A stretch of 64,000 bases of DNA, taken from positions 741,038-805,037 of the forward strand of contig JAHQJS010000006.1 of NCBI GenBank assembly GCA_019057385.1. The letters are read 5' to 3'. The notes beneath the pieces were generated by a model, which saw only the letters and a program-made list of their open reading frames with translations, searched no databases and was not told where the DNA came from. The DNA comes from Candidatus Borrarchaeum weybense (GTDB taxonomy: Archaea > Asgardarchaeota > Sifarchaeia > Borrarchaeales > Borrarchaeaceae). The stretch's first letter is position 1, and every line of letters begins with the position of its first letter. Made by a program: the position numbers and the translations under genes. Positions 2,531-21,577 of this stretch are shown one piece after another.

Positions 2531-3013
2531 TCAGCAATCTGAGATCATAAGATCTTCACCAACAACGAGACCAAAAAGAATAGCGACACCAATTAACAGC
2601 ACCCATAAGAATTCAGGATAATCGATTAGCACGAAAAGTTTCACTGGGAGAAACAATAAAACCCTAAAGATAAAAGAACGAACAAGTCGCGCCACCCTAT
2701 CCCAAAACCCTACATCTATGCAAGGATGGAACTTACGGAACTTAGGATCACGCAAAAAAGCATATTCAATTCTATCTATAGAAAATATGGTGAGTTCTCG
2801 ATAAAAAATGCCAAAAAGTGCGAAAACAAGAGCAAAGAAGTGTAACCCTAGACATTTGGAAGTGGTCAAAATCACAATGGAAGCTGATGATGCGACAGTA
2901 GCTATGACGAGTGTTGAGTTCTCCCGTGTCTGCGCTTTATCTCTTATGGTCTCATACTTAATTTTATCCTCATTGTTTTTAGACATCTGAATCCAAATTG
3001 GAATTATGTTCAC
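2531..3013 (-). CDS. Small multi-pass membrane protein
   Basis: About 4 hydrophobic segments; no recognised motif. Confidence 0.6.
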   Translation of the reverse strand: MNIIPIWIQMSKNNEDKIKYETIRDKAQTRENSTLVIATVASSASIVILTTSKCLGLHFFALVFALFGIFYRELTIFSIDRIEYAFLRDPKFRKFHPCIDVGFWDRVARLVRSFIFRVLLFLPVKLFVLIDYPEFLWVLLIGVAILFGLVVGEDLMISDC

Positions 3014-9725: not shown

Positions 9726-10075
9726 TTTATGAAGAGGTATTCACCTAGAATAAAATCTAGTTTATTTAATCTATTATAGAATGCCGAAAATTAGAGTTTA
9801 AAGCTTAAGACTAAAATATCTTTAAAGTTTATCCTACCTAAGTGAAAAGGATGGATTTCACGAGGCGTGCTAAACGGGGCGGATTGATTTCAGCCTCATT
9901 TTTTATTTACTTGAAGATAAGTGGCAAATAAAGTGACCTTTGATGCAACCGAAAGAATATCATTTGAACCGTTTCGCAACTACGTCCATTGTTTGTTTTT
10001 GCTAGTATCACATTAAAGGGGGGATGCCCCCCTAAAAAAAGCTTTATTTGTTAAAAAAGCCAATTGTACAAATAG

Positions 10076-10796: not shown

Positions 10797-11117
10797 TTGT
10801 TGGAGGGTATTTTCATTTCAACTAAAAATCCTTGTGTTCGAGAAGCCTGTCTTTATGAAGAATTACCAAACAAGAAAGTACGCTGTGGCGTATGTGAACG
10901 AAGATGTGTAATCCTCAACGGAGAGCGAGGATTTTGTAAAACACGTGAAAATATGGATGGCAAATTGTTTACATTGATTTATGGCGATATTTCATCAATT
11001 TCTGCCAATCCTATTGAAAAAAAACCATTATTTCATTTCTGGCCAGGAAGCCATGCACTAACTGTAGGCTCATGGAGCTGTAATTTTACCTGTCCATGGT
11101 GTCAGAATTGTGGAATT
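10797..11117 (+). CDS. amrS: AmmeMemoRadiSam radical SAM enzyme, 5' fragment (interrupted by integrative element)
   Basis: VRCGVCERRC...GFCKTREN...NPIEKKPLFHFWPGS..LTVGSWSCNFTCPWCQN; ends at attL. Confidence 0.92.
11103..11117 (+). repeat. attL core
   Basis: CAGAATTGTGGAATT, identical to 19214-19228. Confidence 0.93.
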
Positions 11118-11193
11118 GATCATAAAGGTATTACCCTATGTTAATACAAATCAATACCTTATTATAATACTTTCAACACAAATCTTTCCTATT

Positions 11194-11484
11194 ATGACTG
11201 AATCTATTTGGCATGAAAAAATTAAAGAGAAACTAGAACAAGAATACCTAAGAAGAGGATATTCCAAACATTCTATTTTTCCAGAATTTACGGTTATTGG
11301 TTCAAATTATAGAGTTGATTTTGCAATTATAACCGATAAAAAACGAATCTGCTATGAAATAGGTTCTGTTAATACTACCAAAGACCGAATGGATAGAATC
11401 TTTGACTTTTTTGATGAAATCAGACATATCCCTTTTCATGCTGATATTTACGATTATTATTTCATAAAAAATAAAAATGACTAA
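11194..11484 (+). CDS. Small PD-(D/E)xK-like nuclease-fold protein
   Basis: WHEKIKEKL...FPEF....YRVDFAI.....CYEIG; ATG at 11194 preferred over the track start, which lies inside att. Confidence 0.6.
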   Translation: MTESIWHEKIKEKLEQEYLRRGYSKHSIFPEFTVIGSNYRVDFAIITDKKRICYEIGSVNTTKDRMDRIFDFFDEIRHIPFHADIYDYYFIKNKND

Positions 11485-11584
11485 CTCAAAGGAATTATCT
11501 CAATATTATTAATATTTTCATTAAACATTATCCTTTAATAATTTAGATGTGATATAAAATTAGACACAAATAAAAAAATGGGGG

Positions 11585-12709
11585 ATAGAAATACCTATTA
11601 ATCAAATTTTTGAATTTAAATCTGACTGGTTTCAATTTTATCAGGCTGTTCTTAGAAATGAGATAGAGGACGAATCCTTTACAAAAAAATATTTAAAGGC
11701 ATATATAGTCGAATCTAATTTCGAATCTATTGATCAACTTAAAGCATATCACCCAGAGTTAAAGAACAAGATCATTGAATCAAAAGAACAATCTTTTTAT
11801 AATATCAAATATGGAACGCATAAATTCTTATATCTCGATACAGAGAACGATCGTTTTTGGGTTATTCATAGTCTAGAAAGACAAGAGGACATTCACCCTA
11901 AAATTGTTGAACTATTCTGTAATAGTTATCTCCAAGATAAAATATATGTTCCAAATCAAATGATGGAGGATTATCGGAAAAATTATAGTAAACAATCATT
12001 AGGAGCGAGCTTAAACTTTAAACAATTGATTGCAGAGAAAGAACCTAAAGACCAACGATTAAGTACAGATGTTTCAGAAGATCTAGAAGGAGAAATTGAT
12101 AATTACGCATTAAGAATATGGCTTAACAGATCAGAAAAAATGGATTATGTACTTAAAAGTTTCAAACAAATTGGATTGCCAATTAATTATAATTATCTTA
12201 ATTATGCCTTTTATAATGAAGATAATGAACTTATTATGAAAGAGAACTTTCATAGAGATGGTAAATTTACGATTAATAAAGGGATAGAACTTATCCAGCA
12301 TATTAATTTTGTTCACAAAGTTAGAGACGACTATAGTTCAAAATTGAATTTAATTGAAGATTACCGTATTGATTGGACGAAAAAAAAGGGTGATTTAATA
12401 AAAATTCTATTTACAAAGAAAGATATAGACCCCAAAAAACTATATCAGAGTTTCAAGTCCTATAAGTCAACCTTTCGAATGATAATTATCCCATTATTCA
12501 AAGAAAAAGACTATTATTTTTTTGATTGTTTAGATACACACACAGGAGGGCGTTTTTCTTTACAAATATCTAAAAGACAAATTCTTGTTAATCTAAAACC
12601 AGATTCATGCGGTAATGTTGTTTTTCGCTTACTCTCCAATTTACAAAAACATATTTCTTCAGAAATTTCAATTGAAATAGATAATCAAGATTTAAAAATT
12701 CTAAATTAA
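11585..12709 (+). CDS. Uncharacterised ~374-aa protein (longer than the track call)
   Basis: Frame open from 11564 (LKAYIVESN...YLDTENDRFWVIHSL...DTHTGG...CGNVVFRLLSNLQ); start is either ATA at 11585 or ATG at 11578 with one extra G. Confidence 0.7.
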   Translation: MEIPINQIFEFKSDWFQFYQAVLRNEIEDESFTKKYLKAYIVESNFESIDQLKAYHPELKNKIIESKEQSFYNIKYGTHKFLYLDTENDRFWVIHSLERQEDIHPKIVELFCNSYLQDKIYVPNQMMEDYRKNYSKQSLGASLNFKQLIAEKEPKDQRLSTDVSEDLEGEIDNYALRIWLNRSEKMDYVLKSFKQIGLPINYNYLNYAFYNEDNELIMKENFHRDGKFTINKGIELIQHINFVHKVRDDYSSKLNLIEDYRIDWTKKKGDLIKILFTKKDIDPKKLYQSFKSYKSTFRMIIIPLFKEKDYYFFDCLDTHTGGRFSLQISKRQILVNLKPDSCGNVVFRLLSNLQKHISSEISIEIDNQDLKILN

Positions 12710-12728
12710 AAGGAGCTGAAATTCTCCT

Positions 12729-13697
12729 TTGATAAATTTAATACAAGTTTTTAAAATTTCTAGTATAACTAAAACACTTAATTTTTTATTAGCATGTTTT
12801 AAGAAAATGCAAAATCATAGAAGAATAATATATGAACTAGATATTTCTCTACAAAATGATTCAAATTGCAAGCCTGATCTATTTTGTCTTTTAGTTGAGG
12901 AAGGTGAGTTTTATTATAGTCTTTTTGAGATTAAAGCACGAACTGTATTTTCAGAAGAGGATATTAATGAGAAGATAAAACCACAATATTTATCATATCA
13001 AAATATAACCGTTAATGATTTAGATGATTATCTCATTCCAAGAATCCAAAATACAACTATCTATATTAATTATTTATTTTATGACTCAGAGCGACAAATA
13101 ATTGATCAAATAATCAACAGTGTACCAATTCAATCGAACGTATATCATTTAAACTTAAATGAACGCCAAATTATTGCCATTCAATCAAATTCAGGAAATC
13201 TTAATGACCAATTAATGGAGAAGATTATAGAGTTATCCCAAGAGACAAGTCTTTGGAATAAAATATATGTTCCTTTTACCTTTAAGGATATCCAAGATTT
13301 TCGAGGAAAAGGGGGAAAGGAAGTAGATATTCATAACAGATCAGGTATAATTCTTGCTGTTAATTTTATGATGTTTGTTCTTTCGAGAAAAATTAGAAAA
13401 GAAGATACACTTTTCCTAGTGGATGATTTCATAAATTATGTATTCCAAAATAATTTTGAGAACTTAAATGTAGGTTGGGAACAAAGAAAAACATTTAAGA
13501 AAAAATTTAGATTATTTTTACAGTTTATTTGTAATGAATTACCAAAAAAAATTGACATTGATCCGATTATTGAGAAAACTGATGGATATTACAGAATTTT
13601 ATTAAGACACACAGCTACATTAGAAAGGAGAATAAGTGAAATCACGCAAGAATTAATCAAATTTTTAAAACAAAAAAGACTACCTGAGTTTTATTGA
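12729..13697 (+). CDS. PD-(D/E)xK nuclease-domain protein
   Basis: CKPDLF.........FEIKAR; operonic with the upstream gene. Confidence 0.6.
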   Translation: MINLIQVFKISSITKTLNFLLACFKKMQNHRRIIYELDISLQNDSNCKPDLFCLLVEEGEFYYSLFEIKARTVFSEEDINEKIKPQYLSYQNITVNDLDDYLIPRIQNTTIYINYLFYDSERQIIDQIINSVPIQSNVYHLNLNERQIIAIQSNSGNLNDQLMEKIIELSQETSLWNKIYVPFTFKDIQDFRGKGGKEVDIHNRSGIILAVNFMMFVLSRKIRKEDTLFLVDDFINYVFQNNFENLNVGWEQRKTFKKKFRLFLQFICNELPKKIDIDPIIEKTDGYYRILLRHTATLERRISEITQELIKFLKQKRLPEFY

Positions 13698-13925
13698 ATA
13701 ATAGATTTTTACAAGCAGTTTCTGGGCATTTTCCTTGAAGATAGAACTTTATGTACCGTATCTAAAAAAAGAATGAATTTTATACCTTAATTATCTAGTA
13801 AAATATCACTTGATTTTAAATACCCATTTTAAATACCTTTTTTCATAACAGGTTACTTTTCCTTATCAAAACAAGTAAATAGTATGTCAATTACCTATCA
13901 TACTAAGATATATCAAAATTATAAT

Positions 13926-14480
13926 CTACTGTTCTACTGAAAACCTCGCAAGTGATTGTTGATGTTGGTAAATATCTTCTGTATATCTTGAAATAAAATC
14001 AGTATTTACTCCTTTTTTTCTATCCTGAGTATATTTTGCATTTAACTGGCAGTCTAAATTATTATTCGGTAATGCTACATCAAATTCATATTGTAATGAG
14101 ATATTATCTTTTATATCCTCCATTTCTATTCTCAATGGAAATACCTGTTCCTGTTCCCATTCGCCTTTCCAATTCCTTCCCTCACATCTCCCCTCTATTT
14201 CTCTATCATTATCAAATATCTTTAGGGTAGGTGCTTCAACGGTTGTGTTTTTTCCACCAGCATTGATAATTCTAATTTTAACCCATAATCTATGTGTATG
14301 GTGTTCACTTTCCATTATCTCAACACTAAATTTTTGTCGTTCTGTAATAAATCGAATAACTTGTATTATCGTTCCACTTGTACCTATTGCACCTAATACT
14401 AAAGCTATTATTGTAGTCAAATCTGTTGTTGATACTGTTGTTGCTGTTTGTGTTGCATTTTGTAACATCATTTCTATCAC
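13926..14480 (-). CDS. N-terminal single-TM protein with beta-rich domain
   Basis: TM IIALVLGAIGTSGTII; IRIINAGGKNTTV. Confidence 0.65.
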   Translation of the reverse strand: MIEMMLQNATQTATTVSTTDLTTIIALVLGAIGTSGTIIQVIRFITERQKFSVEIMESEHHTHRLWVKIRIINAGGKNTTVEAPTLKIFDNDREIEGRCEGRNWKGEWEQEQVFPLRIEMEDIKDNISLQYEFDVALPNNNLDCQLNAKYTQDRKKGVNTDFISRYTEDIYQHQQSLARFSVEQ

Positions 14481-14759
14481 TACTAATTACCCTTTCAATA
14501 TTATTAGATTTCTGTCCTGCTATCTATTTCTTCTAATAAGGTATCTAAATCTTCTATCCAATTACCTAACATCCTATCATTTTTTATACCTCATTTAACA
14601 TTCTACCTATTATTTCTCTATAACTAAAAATTGAGAAAAAACTGAGAGATAGTTTTAGAAAACAAAAAGAGGATTCTTACTTTGGATGCAAAATAATTAA
14701 GTTTAAGATATGTAGAATAAACTCTTTTTTATCCTATTATAGAAAATTAGATCTTGTTT

Positions 14760-15252
14760 TTATATACTTAAGTTCCGTAAATTATCTAATATATCATCTA
14801 TCTTTTGTTTTAATCTCTCTAACTTATTCTTATTCTCTGTAATAAAATCAGTACTGCTCTCTACGTTTATTATCAGATCACGATCAAAAATAGCATTTAT
14901 CTTTTCAACATCAACCTCAATATCAGCATCCACATAAATTTTTCCTAACTGAGATAGAAATGGATCTGTAAGCAAATATAAAATTCCACTGGATCGGATA
15001 AAAATCCAAGCGTTATCATCTAAATTTATAGGCGGAATGGCAAAATCCCTAATGTTCTGATTCTAAAATTTTTATATGTCCTTCAATTTTTAATTTATTT
15101 TGAGTTAATTCAATGATAAGATTCTTTTTGACCTTATCCAATTCTTGATTTCTTCTATCCTTTTCTTTCTTAACATCCCACGCTAAGCCTAATAGAAAAC
15201 CAATAATAACTCCTATTAAACCTGAAATTGTTGGATCTATTTTTAACATCAT
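14760..15252 (-). pseudogene. Frameshifted single-TM protein
   Basis: The 15049-15252 ORF continues in another frame (IRDFAIPPINLDDNAWIFIRSSG...) into the 14760-14975 ORF. Confidence 0.65.
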
Positions 15253-15272
15253 ATTCTCGATCCTTAGAGATA

Positions 15273-15615
15273 TTATTCACTACGTTTCATCTGCTCAGTC
15301 ATAATATCTTTAACCTTTTCTTCATCAACAACTTCTACTTTTACCCCATTTATTCTTACTTCTGCAATTTTTTTATCCTTTAACTTTTCTTTCAACCAAA
15401 AAGCAAATTTGATAATATTTCCGATATTACTAATTATTGTTGTTATTAGAACAATATCTGGAATACCAATTGCTTTTCTAATGTATGTACTCCCATTCTA
15501 CTGTTACATCCTCAGAAATAGATTTTCTTGTTTCTCCTACTGAGAGTTCCTTTGTTTCAAATAACTCAAACTCTAAGGATTTCTCAAATGTTTCAATCTC
15601 TATATCAAATCTCAT
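15273..15615 (-). pseudogene. Frameshifted small hypothetical protein
   Basis: MRFDIEIETFEKSLEFELF...VTVEW, frameshift near 15490, then STYIRKAIGIPDIV...FWLKEKLKDKK...MKRSE*. Confidence 0.6.
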
Positions 15616-15730
15616 GGAAAAAGTCTATGTTTTCTTCTTCTTATTAAAATTATATGGCAAATTTCTAAAAAATTGAAAAATCCCCATTTCACTAATTTTA
15701 TTATATTCAGAAATTCTATATCTTTAAAAC

Positions 15731-16522
15731 ATGTCAATTTTCAAAGACTTAAAAAAATATAAAGAACACATACTCCGCATTGTTGTCCTCATAGTTATAG
15801 TAATAATCGTACCGCTAATTATTAGGTTACTTTTCCCCGAGTTTTTTAATATGTTTGTAATCCCCATAGTTGTCGGATTGATCACATCTGCTATTTGGTA
15901 TTATATAGTTTGGACTCTCTTTATTTATCCAACACAAAAAAGGGCAGAAGTTGTAAAGAAAGCAGTCTTTAAACTATTACTTAACTCTGAGATCCATTAT
16001 CCCCTTGGTGTAATAATTTTTAATCTTCTTCTTAAAGAGGATAAAACACCCGAAAACTTTTATAGGAATATCAAAAGCTATGTAGAGGCAAACCCTCAAA
16101 TATTTCAAGATTCAAATCTCTTAATCAATTATTTGAAAGCCATTTCTTTGGATGAATTTCACCAAGGCTTAATTGAGAAAATGACTCACTTAGATGATCA
16201 CACATGGAACAAAATAATAGATGCTACAATTAACTTAAAAAAAATTCTTAGTGATTTTCACACTCGTTATCCTCTTCATTACTCCAACGCTTGTAACATC
16301 TATCATAACGATCATCGCCATTACCTTCATGTTTCTTGTATCTATATTCTACATCGTTTATTTCCACACATCCAAATTTTTTATTCGCTATTTCTTTTCT
16401 CTTCTTACGTTTCTTCCTTCTCTTCTTATCTCTACTTAGTTCTATCAATTCACGCTTTGCATCTCTTGATATTTTTTCAAGATCAATCTTACTCATTTTC
16501 TTCACTTAAATACTCTGTCTAA
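15731..16522 (+). CDS. 2-TM membrane protein; 3' part probably read-through over an antisense gene
   Basis: Two N-terminal TMs; after ~16250 it overlaps 16248-16505(-) and looks non-protein-like. Confidence 0.5.
   Translation: MSIFKDLKKYKEHILRIVVLIVIVIIVPLIIRLLFPEFFNMFVIPIVVGLITSAIWYYIVWTLFIYPTQKRAEVVKKAVFKLLLNSEIHYPLGVIIFNLLLKEDKTPENFYRNIKSYVEANPQIFQDSNLLINYLKAISLDEFHQGLIEKMTHLDDHTWNKIIDATINLKKILSDFHTRYPLHYSNACNIYHNDHRHYLHVSCIYILHRLFPHIQIFYSLFLFSSYVSSFSSYLYLVLSIHALHLLIFFQDQSYSFSSLKYSV
16248..16505 (-). CDS. Small basic hypothetical protein
   Basis: K/R-rich 85-aa ORF. Confidence 0.5.
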   Translation of the reverse strand: MKKMSKIDLEKISRDAKRELIELSRDKKRRKKRKKRKEIANKKFGCVEINDVEYRYKKHEGNGDDRYDRCYKRWSNEEDNECENH

Positions 16523-16922
16523 CTCAGTTTTACTCAATTTATGGTTCATAATGTTCAATTTAGGTATCCTATGATACCCCCCTACCTTAACATGGTTTTT
16601 AGAAATCAGATAAAACACTACACTTGACTCATTTTTATTAAATTAGCATTAATGATCTTATCTTTCTTCTTATGACCATTACCATTATTATTGCCAAATG
16701 TATCAATCATTTCCCTTTTTTCCCATATTCTGGTTTTTTTGTCGTACTCTCTACTCGCGTCTGAACAACATCCTATATGCAGGCTATAGCCCCATATATT
16801 CATCTCGGTTCAGGAGATTCAGTATCTCCCAATTAACTATTACCTCAGCACCTATATAAACCTTTCGGTTGATATTAGAGCATATTTCCTTATTTTGAAC
16901 AATTTTATGGTATATCTCAATC

Positions 16923-17089
16923 TTATAGTATATCTAATAATTTAGTTATACCAAAAACCGAATAAAATTATACTTTATAGAATATTGTTATACGTTATTT
17001 TGATTTTGTTATACTTTTCAAAAATAGCAGAATAAAAACCTTTTAATCTATAATTAATAAAAAAAGAAAGTGATACAATAATTGTATCA
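16923..17089. repeat. Phased TTATAC direct repeats and palindrome in an AT-rich intergenic region
   Basis: TTATAC at 16946, 16968, 16988, 17009; TGATACAA-TAA-TTGTATCA at 17071-17089. Confidence 0.55.
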
Positions 17090-17147
17090 AAATAGGGATT
17101 AGGGAAGGAACTTTGCGTTACCAATTCGCTTTTCCTTCTCTTTTTTC

Positions 17148-18497
17148 CTACCAGTATTTATTTTGATTATTACCTAGCACATTCTCTACTCGTTCCTCTA
17201 ATTCTTCTATGCCACTTCTCAGATATAATGATGTTACTCTCAAATTGGCATGACCTAACATCTTTTGTATATCTGATAATAACATCCGTTCACCGTGTTC
17301 ATTCTGGGCTTTTTCCCATATCTTAGCTGCGGTATATCTAACATCATGCGGAGTTACCCTGAATCCTACCTTCTTTGAAATTTCCTTGTAATATTTCCAG
17401 ATAGCATTTCTATATGGTCTTTTTCCTTGCCTTGTAGTTATTAGGTAATCATGGTTCGGTCTAAATAACATTCTTTGTTTCATCTGTCTATTCAAATATC
17501 GTACTTGTTCATCGGTCAATGTCAATATTCGTTCCTTTGGAATATTACCCTTTGACTTGCCGTATATCTTTATTCTTTTACTTTCTAAGTCTATATGTTC
17601 TCTTTTTATCCGTGTATACTCTTCTCTTCTCAATCCAAAGTTCAATCCTAACCAAAAAACAAATCTTAGTATCGGATGTCTTACTGTTTTAAATATTGTT
17701 TTTACTTGTGATTCTGTTAATGATACTCTTGTCGTTTCTGTCCTGTGTTCATTACTATAGTTATTTCTGATCCATTTTCTTATCTTTTTTCTAGTCTTTT
17801 TAGATATACATACATCATTTTCTTCATCCCACGTCAAAAAACCAGCTATAGTATATGCCTTGTTCACTAGCGTATTTACTGAATTAGCTTTCTGATCTCG
17901 TTTTGCATCATAAACACCTTTCGTTTCTAAATGATTGAAATATTCTATCATATCACTTAATTCTAACTCTTGAAATCCCTGTTTATTCCTTACTTCAATG
18001 AGATAACTTTCAAAGTCTACTAGAATGGGTATATTGGTTACTAGACTTGAACGCGCAAACTCACCAGAATAATAATAATCTCTTAATATATCACTTAAAT
18101 TTTCTACATCTGTTTTATTATTATTTTCTGGTATCTCTAAGCCAGCTAATTCTATAGCTGTTATCAATGATCCAAATCGTCTTTTGTAAGTAGCTCCATC
18201 TGGTAACTCTTTTCTTCGCAAATCTGGATATTTCGGTACTCTTCCATGTTCTTCAAAGAATTTTACTAAAACATTCAATAATTCTTTATCAGAATACACA
18301 TAGTTTCTAGGTAAATATCCAGCTAGTCTTACTGCTTTTGACCAGCTACCAAAATGCCTTGTATATGTCATCGGTGAAGGATTCAAAGGATTACCTTTGA
18401 AATCCAATGCTTGAGGAACTTTACCATGCTGTTCATGCAAATCTCTTATGTATTGTAATAAAGATTCATCGGTGTATTTATTGTACTTATTCCCCAT
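17148..18497 (-). CDS. Tyrosine recombinase/integrase with two N-terminal homing-endonuclease-associated repeats
   Basis: Catalytic R (GLRREE), K (GKSK), HxxR (HDVR), H (LGHAN), Y (TSLY); two YTD/YSD.ELL...HG.VP...TY.R.FGS...A..LAG repeats. Confidence 0.9.
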   Translation of the reverse strand: MGNKYNKYTDESLLQYIRDLHEQHGKVPQALDFKGNPLNPSPMTYTRHFGSWSKAVRLAGYLPRNYVYSDKELLNVLVKFFEEHGRVPKYPDLRRKELPDGATYKRRFGSLITAIELAGLEIPENNNKTDVENLSDILRDYYYSGEFARSSLVTNIPILVDFESYLIEVRNKQGFQELELSDMIEYFNHLETKGVYDAKRDQKANSVNTLVNKAYTIAGFLTWDEENDVCISKKTRKKIRKWIRNNYSNEHRTETTRVSLTESQVKTIFKTVRHPILRFVFWLGLNFGLRREEYTRIKREHIDLESKRIKIYGKSKGNIPKERILTLTDEQVRYLNRQMKQRMLFRPNHDYLITTRQGKRPYRNAIWKYYKEISKKVGFRVTPHDVRYTAAKIWEKAQNEHGERMLLSDIQKMLGHANLRVTSLYLRSGIEELEERVENVLGNNQNKYW

Positions 18498-19072
18498 TAG
18501 ATCAACGCCTTAACTCCTTTACTGAAATCCCATTTAATTCTACCTATTCCATTTAGATCAAACAAGACATCAGCTAGAATATTCTTGTCAGGATACTCTT
18601 CCAATGGAATATTTTCTTGTTCCCAGTCAAAATACTGAGCTATTCCTTCATCCTCATTTCTGATTGCCTTTTCTAATTCATCAAGACTGATCCAATCTTG
18701 TAGATATTTCTCTTTGAATTTCTCTTGTTGTAATAGTCTCCTTAATCTATTGATAGCTATTTCTCGATTCTTTGTTTCATTCATTTCTTCCAATTGGAGA
18801 TCGGATAATGTTATTGATCTTTTCACTGCCTTTATCTCGTTTCTCAAGTTCTTTTGAATATCTTTAAGTAAATCCATTACTGGATTGATGTTTACTGAAC
18901 TTTGGATAGCCAGCTCTGAATCTGGATAAAATAATATTCCCCTAGAAATAAAGAACTCACAGGCATATCTGACAAACTCTGAAGTATCCATTTCGTTGTC
19001 TTCTGCAAACTTCTTGATTCTTTCCTTTTGTATGGATGATGCTTTCACTACGATATGTTCATTCTTTACCAA
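18497..19072 (-). CDS. Ribbon-helix-helix-like DNA-binding protein with coiled coil
   Basis: HIVVKASSIQKERIKKFAEDNEMDTSEFVRYAC; stop overlaps the integrase start. Confidence 0.7.
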   Translation of the reverse strand: MVKNEHIVVKASSIQKERIKKFAEDNEMDTSEFVRYACEFFISRGILFYPDSELAIQSSVNINPVMDLLKDIQKNLRNEIKAVKRSITLSDLQLEEMNETKNREIAINRLRRLLQQEKFKEKYLQDWISLDELEKAIRNEDEGIAQYFDWEQENIPLEEYPDKNILADVLFDLNGIGRIKWDFSKGVKALI

Positions 19073-19213
19073 TTATTCACACGCCCTTGTTTTAGTTCTC
19101 TAAAAAGTCGTATGGTTATCCAGTACGCGGGATTTTACCCCGTACTTTCATCTCTAATACTCTTTATACCCTAGTACCTATAAATACTTTACGGTTATTA
19201 ATACTTTTATAGC

Positions 19214-19228
19214 CAGAATTGTGGAATT
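19214..19228 (+). repeat. attR core
   Basis: CAGAATTGTGGAATT. Confidence 0.93.
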
Positions 19229-20026
19229 AGCAAAACCGAACCAAATTCACGTCGAACAAACTATATGAGTCCAGAAGTATTCGAAAAAACTATGAAAGCG
19301 AATGATTGCATTGGATCATCGATTAGCTTTAATGAACCTACCCTGCTTTTGGAATACTCTCTTGATGTATTTGATACTGTGAAAGAATCTGGTCTATATT
19401 ATAATACATATATAACAAATATGTACATGACAGAAGAGGCTTTGAAATTACTCACAGAACATAAATGCGATGCGTTTGCCGCTAATATGAAGGGCGATGC
19501 AGAAGTTGTCAAAAAGCACTGTGGTGCTGATATAGAACTCATATGGAGAAACCTAAAGTTAGCAAAGGAAATGGGTGCACATATCGAAGTAATCACACTC
19601 GTCATACCCACAATCAATGATGATGTGCAAACCCTAAAAGAGATTGCCACTCGTATCTATGATGAGTTAGGAAAGGACACACCTTGGCATTGCACTCAGT
19701 TTTTTCCTGCATATAAATCTAGGGAAATAGGACTCAAAAAGAGAACACCAATCGAGACACTGGAAAAAGCCTACGAACTTGGAAAAGACGCTGGTTTGCG
19801 ATTTGTGTATTTGGGAAATGTCCCAAATCACCCTTATGAAAACACATATTGTCCTTCCTGCAATGCGTTATTGATTAAACGGTTTATTTTTGACTCACAG
19901 ATCTTTTTTAATGTTAAAAAAAGAATAGATGATAGAATTGATTTTGAAAAAAGGTGTCCTAACTGTGGAGAACATATTGAAATATTTGGTGAGTTCATTA
20001 GAAAAGAAAAAGGGGTTTTTAGCTAA
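19214..20026 (+). CDS. amrS: AmmeMemoRadiSam radical SAM enzyme, 3' fragment
   Basis: QNCGISKTEP...SFNEPT...HIEVITLVIPTIND...TPWHCTQFFPAY...GLRFVYLGNV...NTYCPSC; in frame with the 5' fragment across att. Confidence 0.92.
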   Translation, partial: QNCGISKTEPNSRRTNYMSPEVFEKTMKANDCIGSSISFNEPTLLLEYSLDVFDTVKESGLYYNTYITNMYMTEEALKLLTEHKCDAFAANMKGDAEVVKKHCGADIELIWRNLKLAKEMGAHIEVITLVIPTINDDVQTLKEIATRIYDELGKDTPWHCTQFFPAYKSREIGLKKRTPIETLEKAYELGKDAGLRFVYLGNVPNHPYENTYCPSCNALLIKRFIFDSQIFFNVKKRIDDRIDFEKRCPNCGEHIEIFGEFIRKEKGVFS

Positions 20027-20047: not shown

Positions 20048-21577
20048 TTAATGGACCATAACTAACTCGGGATGACGTCGCTCATAATAGCGGATATATG
20101 CTTTTAGAACTTCGATCATTGCACGGATTCCCATCTTAACTATAGCCTTATGACCTATTTCGCTGGCAACCACTCTATAATTTCTGTCCATGTGTTTAAT
20201 GTTGTGTCTCCAGCAGTCCAATAGAATACGAGCATGGTATGGTGTCATATTGTCTGCTATGAACGCTCTGGAGTTTTTCATACTTGTAACCTGCATCGGG
20301 ACGAAGAAAAGTGGTATATACAAGTGAGGAAATGCGTCAAGTCTTTTTATTAGTTCAATAGTATCTTTCATTTCATCTGGTCCTTCACTGGGAAGTCCTG
20401 ATACTAATGTACAGACATTCGTCCAACCCAAATTGGCACAAGTTCGTAGAGCGTCGTATATCATGTCTGGATATTCTTCTGATGAGAAAGGAAGGGCTTT
20501 ACCATGCATTATTTCTTCAATTGTTTTAGAGCATCCTGTTTCGATTCCTGGTTGACATCCATAATACCTATGTCCTTTGCTTCGGAGGTATTTAGTTAAT
20601 CGTTCAAAAAAGTCTGGGTCGAAAGCCATTGGTGCTAAAGTCGAATGGGTTACAAACACCCGACTTATGCCAACATCCTCAAAGAGTGTTTTGTAAAGAT
20701 TCATTATAGCATCTTCGTCCGGGTAGAAGTGCTTTGAGTTGGAACCATATAAGAACACATCCTCTGACTGTAGACACATAGAATTATCACGGCTTCCCTT
20801 AGCATTTATTTTTGCATCATGCAATATTTTTTCAAGAGGGAAATCTCGCATCTTTCCAGCAGTGTTCGGGGCACAGAATTTACATCCTCTCCCGCATCCT
20901 CGTGAAATCTCCGTATAAGTGCCAAGCGCTGGACCCTGTATTAGAGGCACATCTTTTGGTTTTACTTGTCTTCCATAAAACACTCTTCTGTCAAGGCTTC
21001 CATTATTTTCCGGGCTTGCAAGTTGGCTAAAGAGTTCTGGAATTACATATTCTCCTTCGCCGATTACTAAATGATCTATACCAAATTTATCCATGTGAGC
21101 TTCGACTTCCCATGCACCTGGGCCGCCCATAACAACTTTAAATCCATATTTATTCTTTAGTTCCTTAACTTTTCTCATTAATCTAAAATATTCGATTCGG
21201 TTATGTGGAATGCCCTTAAAAATGGTGCTCCACGTTGATGTAGCAGGACCGATGCCCAATGGGTCTTCTGCTGAAATACCAACGATTTTTGTATTCTTGT
21301 TTATCAACTTATCCAAATAAAGCGAATGTGTAACTTTTACTTGTTCTCTGGAAAAACCACTCTGTATACATGTTGCTTCAATGGTCCTAAGACCGAGAGT
21401 TGCCCGAACTAAAGTTCCATCAGGGTAAGCTGGTTCGAGTGGGCAAAAGAACTTGAAGTAAATCCAGTGTGGACATATATTTTGTGGTAAACAAGCGCCA
21501 AATCCGACGTATGGGATCCCATTGTAATCGCTTGTTAGTGATAGATCTGAGGTTAATACGATTTCTGCACGTGCCAT
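20048..21577 (-). CDS. B12-binding-domain radical SAM protein
   Basis: EISRGCGRGCKFC; VVMGGPGAW, GEGE. Confidence 0.85.
   Translation of the reverse strand: MARAEIVLTSDLSLTSDYNGIPYVGFGACLPQNICPHWIYFKFFCPLEPAYPDGTLVRATLGLRTIEATCIQSGFSREQVKVTHSLYLDKLINKNTKIVGISAEDPLGIGPATSTWSTIFKGIPHNRIEYFRLMRKVKELKNKYGFKVVMGGPGAWEVEAHMDKFGIDHLVIGEGEYVIPELFSQLASPENNGSLDRRVFYGRQVKPKDVPLIQGPALGTYTEISRGCGRGCKFCAPNTAGKMRDFPLEKILHDAKINAKGSRDNSMCLQSEDVFLYGSNSKHFYPDEDAIMNLYKTLFEDVGISRVFVTHSTLAPMAFDPDFFERLTKYLRSKGHRYYGCQPGIETGCSKTIEEIMHGKALPFSSEEYPDMIYDALRTCANLGWTNVCTLVSGLPSEGPDEMKDTIELIKRLDAFPHLYIPLFFVPMQVTSMKNSRAFIADNMTPYHARILLDCWRHNIKHMDRNYRVVASEIGHKAIVKMGIRAMIEVLKAYIRYYERRHPELVMVH

Follow-up and report, generated by a model that had tools for sequence, protein, structure and literature searches.

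In the Asgard archaeon Candidatus Borrarchaeum weybense, from marine sediment, a radical SAM gene of the amrS family is interrupted directly after its iron–sulfur (Fe–S) motif by an integrated element of 8,096 bp, whose removal at its flanking direct repeats would rebuild the gene in frame. The window in which it lies, that is, the whole 64,000-nt stretch of DNA analysed here (741038–805037 of contig C6; positions below are counted from its first letter), belongs to a metagenome-assembled genome, G000, of 8 contigs and 4.18 Mb with an estimated contamination of 7%, which we compared with two genomes of the same genus, G004 (Ca. Borrarchaeum yapensis) and G001. The interruption is probably a recent and selfish insertion, the work of an archaeal integrative element that represents a new variant and can probably still move. 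Two of its features are new: the target, in the middle of a gene beside a catalytic motif, and the architecture of the integrase.

The 5′ part of the gene (107 codons; 10797–11117, plus strand) ends just after CNFTCPWC-QNCGI, and the 3′ part (265 codons and the stop; 19229–20026, plus strand) takes up the reading frame 8,111 bp further on. Scored against TIGR04337, the family of the AmmeMemoRadiSam system radical SAM enzyme (curated cut-off 220 bits), the 5′ part matches positions 4–91 with 84.5 bits, and the 3′ part, read from 19214 to 20026, matches positions 87–330 with 136.3 bits. The 5′ part is collinear with intact orthologs (L014, 952–2070; L015, 1492–2613), and its frame continues for nine codons into the element (DHKGITLC), to a TAA stop that ends at 11144. 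On the other side, a TAA at 19199–19201 shuts the frame of the 3′ part upstream, so that the element provides no replacement end for the gene. Neither half contains a stop or a frameshift.

Both junctions carry the same 15-bp direct repeat, CAGAATTGTGGAATT, on the plus strand: the attL core at 11103–11117 and an identical attR core at 19214–19228, 8,111 bp apart from start to start. These are the only two copies in the window, where 0.03 would be expected by chance, and no further copy occurs across the whole 4.18-Mb genome. The element proper spans 11118–19213 (8,096 bp, or 8,111 bp including one core), is present in a single copy in the genome and has a G+C content of 27–33% versus about 37% for the host. 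When the halves are fused in silico across one repeat, they yield a frame of 372 codons containing ...CNFTCPWCQNCGISKTEPNSRRTNYMSPE..., 87–88% identical to the G004 gene, with the split point at codon 107 of 372. On each of these points, from the break after the Fe–S motif to the shared repeat, the in-frame restoration, the lack of a replacement end and the clean halves, the original prediction from the letters alone holds.

The two other Borrarchaeum genomes supply the empty site. The ortholog is uninterrupted in both G004 (372 amino acids; 88% identical over the 3′ part) and G001 (373 amino acids), the element is absent there, and the core occurs once per intact gene, with 15 of 15 bases matching in G004 and 14 of 15 in G001. 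The site reads ...CPWCQNCGISKTEPN... in G004 and ...CPWCQNCGISKTAPN... in G001, and the junction peptide predicted for the fused gene, CPWCQNCGISKTEPN, is identical. Together, these features of the two relatives are the textbook demonstration of an insertion. The target is not a tRNA gene; the window is without any tRNA gene.

That an assembly or binning error joined unrelated DNA within the gene might be entertained for a metagenome-assembled genome with 7% estimated contamination, but the junctions recur in four runs (X1–X4), examined as assembled contigs (Logan). One 34.6-kb contig from X1 covers both junctions at even depth, and contigs from X2, X3 and X4 separately cross attR or attL, placing the integrated state in four runs from two studies. 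Moreover, an exact 15-bp duplication with in-frame restoration is not expected of a chimera. We regard an artefact as extremely improbable.

The element encodes its own integrase, as had been predicted, and the claim is borne out by the recombinase domain, the catalytic residues, the att repeats and the empty sites in relatives. The integrase is an intact protein of 449 amino acids (17148–18497, minus strand) in which two homing-endonuclease-associated repeats (HNH_repeat, PF18780; 2.6e-26) precede a tyrosine recombinase domain (PF00589; 3.8e-22), an unusual architecture. The catalytic R...H-x-x-R...H/W...Y residues are present, and R290, H384, R387, H416 and Y425 are invariant in an alignment (A1) of the integrase with four full-length relatives, found by exhaustive HMMER searching, and one fragment. 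The closest solved structure, which corresponds to the catalytic domain only, is archaeal XerA (4a8e). Next to the integrase gene lies an intact gene for a 191-amino-acid protein with a ribbon-helix-helix (RHH)-like N terminus (18497–19072, minus strand; sub-threshold NikA-like RHH match), whose stop overlaps the integrase start; the two genes are translationally coupled. The N terminus of this protein is homologous (E = 1e-4) to that of a protein preceding a paralogous integrase in G004, and the protein is a candidate excision or directionality factor, or a repressor.

Relatives of the integrase are distant. The exhaustive HMMER search returned integrases of the same architecture at about 30% identity plus one fragment at 66%; a degenerate-pattern scan of genome contigs found no close relative, and a word-indexed search gave matches to the repeat domain only. 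In genomes of the same genus, the integrase is represented by paralogs of just 28–30% identity. The contexts of the relatives (L029, L030 and L120–L123, all short contigs) show no split gene, and a Radical_SAM gene next to one protein, P0050, was set aside as unrelated to the target gene. In the literature, the name of the repeat domain (PF18780) occurs in no searchable paper; the fusion itself is found in several metagenomic proteins.

Both ends of the element also carry pairs of a short box, TAATACYYT, at 11125–11133 (minus strand) and 11165–11173 (plus strand) on the left and at 19155–19163 and 19199–19207 (both plus strand) on the right. The box has eight matches in the 64-kb window, four of them within 60 nt of the element ends, and these four are candidate arm-type protein-binding sites. 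The integration could be pictured as follows: the integrase would have recombined the attP of a circular form with the 15-bp attB inside the gene, the HNH-associated repeats, the RHH protein or both probably binding the TAATACYYT boxes. The insertion would be recent and selfish, the knocked-out gene dispensable in the short term, and the element could still excise precisely and restore the gene. Reversibility of this kind follows from site-specific recombination and is therefore no evidence of a regulatory device.

Traces of excision were sought directly. No exact join of 11102 to 19229 occurs among the assembled contigs, from which rare variants drop out; a weak joint of 11035 to 19327 in X4, with 29 letters on its shorter side, probably stems from a relative whose gene is intact and was rejected. 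A 19-mer specific to attP, GCCAGAATTGTGGAATTGA, has no match in IMG/VR and five chance matches, all unrelated, in JGI metagenomes. The lack of an attP-type sequence in these public collections would suit an immobile remnant, that is, an element that integrated once and then lost the capacity to excise, leaving a permanently lost gene whose halves have not yet acquired lesions. The recombination machinery points the other way: the integrase is full length and keeps R290, H384, R387, H416 and Y425, the two cores are identical, candidate arm-type boxes stand at both ends, and the RHH gene, itself intact, is coupled to that of the integrase.

The cargo bears on the same question. It begins with an open reading frame (ORF) of 96 amino acids (11194–11484, plus strand), which has no match in Pfam, PHROGs or PADLOC but a homolog with 79% nucleotide identity on a 3.5-kb metagenomic contig (L029, 2952–3242), followed by a frame open for 381 codons (11564–12709, plus strand), the C-terminal half of which matches phrog_22469 (E = 9.5e-14). 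In this second frame, the ATG (11578) is displaced by a single base, at a run of five G (11580–11584). The start at 11578–11584 may have suffered a frameshift mutation or may be prone to slippage. Next come an ORF of 322 amino acids (12729–13697, plus strand) without a family match, for which a language model gives only a lead to MJECL32-like clusters, and one of 184 amino acids (13926–14480, minus strand) without a significant family match, whose hydrophobic N-terminal stretch, recognised by eye, suggests a membrane anchor. Beyond it, a series of short minus-strand ORFs reaches about 17124. Pfam, PHROGs, PADLOC and a protein atlas gave no usable function for the cargo, and nothing in the element was recognisable with Pfam, PHROGs and PADLOC as a gene for replication, a capsid or transfer, for which reason the element is best called a cryptic integrated element. 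Several cargo genes had been thought frameshifted; this stands for one of them (11564–12709).

The frameshifted start of that one gene and the lack of recognised replication, capsid and transfer genes are again what a remnant might show, and a decayed relative does exist. The contig just mentioned, L029 (JGI 3300009034), carries a 213-amino-acid integrase fragment, 66% identical and without the repeats, as well as the homolog of the 96-amino-acid ORF, and does not adjoin the radical SAM gene. Set against the intact recombination module, these points leave the remnant unlikely. The clustered regularly interspaced short palindromic repeat (CRISPR) array of the host (C4:148433–152109) consists of 49 repeats of 37 nt (ATTTCAATCCTTATTACTTAAGGAATTCTTTTGCAAC) and 48 spacers of 37–46 nt, and none of the spacers matches a sequence in the element or anywhere else in the genome.

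The original prediction had proposed that the element may be a recombination switch controlling the AmmeMemoRadiSam enzyme. As a domesticated device, the RHH–integrase module would excise the element under regulation, so that the radical SAM paralog is switched on in certain cells or under certain conditions. Gene-interrupting elements of this type are known from bacteria, among them skin in sigK, the nifD element with XisA and regulatory switches of phage origin, for instance the comK prophage of Listeria, in which excision is regulated and the interrupted state conserved. The likeness is real in that the Borrarchaeum element, too, lies within a reading frame, brings its own recombinase and would rebuild the gene if excised precisely. 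Unlike the bacterial cases, its host has sister genomes with an uninterrupted gene and a paralog of that gene, and its excision is predicted from sequence. We know of no archaeal gene-interrupting excision switch. Three lines of evidence, taken up in turn, bear on whether this is one.

First, the gene that is split is not the canonical amrS. The genome holds a second, intact amrS at C4:917859–918836, which scores 366.7 bits against TIGR04337 and is about 39% identical to the split gene. The intact orthologs of the split gene reach 230.5 and 223.7 bits, barely over the cut-off, so that the split gene is a divergent amrS-family paralog, and the canonical copy may be distant enough from it to act on a different substrate. 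Members of the split gene's subfamily occur widely among archaea and bacteria, at 50–58% identity. AMMECR1 (contig C8) and Memo (C7) are single-copy in the genome and linked to neither radical SAM gene. With a canonical amrS elsewhere, and with G004 and G001 intact and lacking this integrase, the proposed control of the AmmeMemoRadiSam enzyme is not supported. An intact paralog had itself been listed in the original prediction as a finding that would refute it, and the genome contains one.

Second, the genus as a whole does not share the interruption; the site is occupied only in near-identical or approximately 95%-identical populations. The halves themselves have not decayed, as would be expected of a domesticated switch. 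Between G000 and G004, the ratio of nonsynonymous to synonymous substitution rates (dN/dS) is 0.08 for the 5′ part, 0.16 for the 3′ part and 0.14 overall, compared with 0.17 for the intact pair G004–G001, and with G001 as outgroup there are 14 lineage-specific amino-acid changes in G000 and 12 in G004. There is thus no sign of relaxed constraint on the halves, which means either that selection has continued or that, measured against a dS of about 0.4, the insertion is recent; the data fit both. The original prediction had looked to dN/dS to separate a switch from neutral decay. Decay is indeed absent, but a switch is not favoured by this, because undecayed halves are equally expected from a recent insertion and the changes on the branch equal those of the intact sister.

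Third, a member of the same family has destroyed its target irreversibly. G004 carries a paralogous element (L128, 8700–12010, on G004:C27) that packs an RHH-like protein, a 455-amino-acid HNH_repeat integrase and two small ORFs into about 2.8 kb. It sits in a thioredoxin-reductase-like gene, recognised by eye and without family scoring through the motifs GxGxxG and CATC, whose G000 counterpart is intact at C5:77404–78384. In G004, residues 1–31 and 195–327 of this gene are kept and 32–194 (163 codons) are missing, the break falling just before GxGxxG; with these codons gone, excision of the element cannot restore the gene. Read at this locus, the case shows that family members can destroy target genes, and the loss speaks more for selfish elements that choose their targets loosely than for evolved switches. 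A second integrase paralog in G004 is intergenic. Taken with the possibility of precise restoration and the occupied site in two studies, which speak for it, these observations leave a domesticated switch improbable.

Three more integrase paralogs combining HNH_repeat and tyrosine recombinase domains, 27–32% identical, lie within 100 kb of each other in G000 (C7:572315–573631, 592911–594104 and 670707–672146). A scan for direct repeats and fused ORFs around these three found nothing convincing; the same scan recovers the element in the window. The original prediction had also allowed for a new element family that targets this radical SAM motif, and a survey for more family members at the site found none besides a variant of the same element. 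This variant, about 95% identical, crosses attL in the second study (X4 record 20, 11067–12141), from which it follows that the occupied state is not confined to one sample.

Good descriptions exist of archaeal integrated elements that have a tyrosine integrase and short direct repeats. Among Thaumarchaeota, 14 of 68 integrated elements lie in protein genes, in their 3′-distal regions (Krupovic et al. 2019, PMC6563490). The cryptic elements of that group are likewise small, bounded by short direct repeats, equipped with a tyrosine integrase, composed mostly of unknown genes and verified by empty sites (PMC6563490), whereas the present insertion splits its target at codon 107 of 372, immediately beyond the catalytic Fe–S motif, brings no replacement end and has two N-terminal repeats on its integrase. 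Integrated elements of Atabeyarchaeia, another Asgard lineage, have att motifs of about 11 bp and circular forms that co-exist with the integrated ones, as seen in reads (Valentin-Alvarado et al. 2024, PMC11529989). These share with ours an Asgard host, a tyrosine integrase, a short att (11 bp compared with 15 bp) and a size of a few to tens of kilobases; they differ in the host class and in that circular forms were shown there, and the likeness is one of description. Finally, as in the non-suicidal integrases of the pNOB8 type, and as opposed to the SSV type (PMC7253208), the integrase gene stays whole after integration and the att core lies outside it. Unlike the pNOB8 type, the Borrarchaeum integrase has an N-terminal HNH_repeat pair, an RHH partner gene and only about 30% identity to its nearest full-length relatives.

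Several points weigh against a recent, still mobile, selfish insertion. No excised or circular form was seen, the runs being assembled contigs, which drop rare variants. Insertion in the middle of a gene is unusual for archaeal elements, those targeting protein genes in Thaumarchaeota being 3′-distal (PMC6563490). An intact recombination module beside a cargo gene with a frameshifted start, together with intact gene halves, would also be expected of a domesticated switch. Finally, an approximately 95%-identical variant sits at this same site in the second study, so that the occupation may go back further, or extend more widely, than a very recent event would.

On the far side of the gene and outside the element, a convergent gene for a B12-binding radical SAM protein (20048–21577, minus strand; TIGR04013-like, 79.6 bits) is found at the corresponding place in both G004 and G001. 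Orthologs of the split gene in other genomes show irregularities of their own. In a complete 3.58-Mb genome (G040:C1; L027, about 10046–10074, minus strand), an extra T in a T-run, TTTTTT where TTTTT would give CNFFCPWC, shifts the frame at the same Fe–S motif; the gene may be a pseudogene, the site may be slippery, or the extra letter may be a sequencing error. One in-frame TAG stands near the N terminus of the match in each of four orthologs (G031:C180:208–1236, G141:C81, G142:C138 and G144:C214) from a single family, namely the genus of a 3.6-Mb complete genome, and is probably upstream of the true start.

In three orthologs from two other Asgard families, the aromatic codon of CxxxCx(W/Y)C is broken by a short insert, which lies 6 nt upstream of where the att core is found in Borrarchaeum. 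Its length is 29 nt in G012 (contig C66; L025, about 10807–10840, minus strand), 53 nt in G026 (C1 of a complete 2.76-Mb genome; L026, about 10005–10062, minus strand) and 52 nt in G036 (C144; L028, about 2919–2975, plus strand), the last of which shares its genus with Atabeyarchaeia-1. When 400 genomes of the phylum were scanned for the pattern, the insert turned up in these three only; Atabeyarchaeia-1 is without it. All three fit a bulge-helix-bulge (BHB): the central helix GCCC/GGG(T/C) forms four of four pairs in each genome, the 3-nt bulges read ATA and A(G/A)(G/A), and the outer helix ACAT/GTGT has 4 bp in G012 and G026 and is weak in G036, while the inner helices are of unrelated sequence. 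Cutting after the second bulge nucleotide gives CP(W/Y)CQN in frame in all three genomes. The inserts look like BHB introns in a protein-coding gene.

In these lineages, 92–95% of tRNA genes have introns, and the paper reporting this describes none in a protein-coding gene (PMC11291895); BHB introns in protein genes are known from crenarchaeal cbf5 (PMC2738675). Like those of cbf5, the inserts are short, bounded by a bulge-helix-bulge and placed within a reading frame that their removal restores. They differ in the gene that contains them, which codes for a radical SAM protein, and in their hosts, Asgard lineages related to Atabeyarchaeia; their splicing is predicted. Two other explanations were tried and rejected. 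Translational bypass would call for a matching landing codon, of which there is none, and the downstream frame of G012 contains a stop; protection by the intron against the integrase is not expected, the intron-bearing species differing from the att core at several positions, so that recognition is not expected either. The att core sequence is specific to Borrarchaeum, and the closeness of intron and att positions probably reflects the conserved sequence of the motif and not a functional link. An account that combines a reversible Asgard switch, worked by RHH–integrase excision, with DNA coding for CxxxCx(W/Y)C-QN as a recurrent landing place for intervening sequences (the Borrarchaeum element and the BHB introns) is one to which we give little credence. 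If true, a BHB intron in a radical SAM gene extends the RNA splicing of protein-coding genes beyond crenarchaeal cbf5 into intron-rich Asgard lineages.

Mobile elements of Asgard archaea have barely been described, and the pairing of an RHH protein with an integrase of HNH_repeat and tyrosine recombinase domains constitutes a family-level module that recurs in Borrarchaeum genomes. Unlike most archaeal elements, this module lands in the middle of a protein gene, and at the radical SAM gene it offers a clean set of attL, attR and attB with which to test how such an integrase recognises its site. Regulated excision, were it to be shown, would make the element the first counterpart in archaea of the gene-interrupting switches of bacteria.

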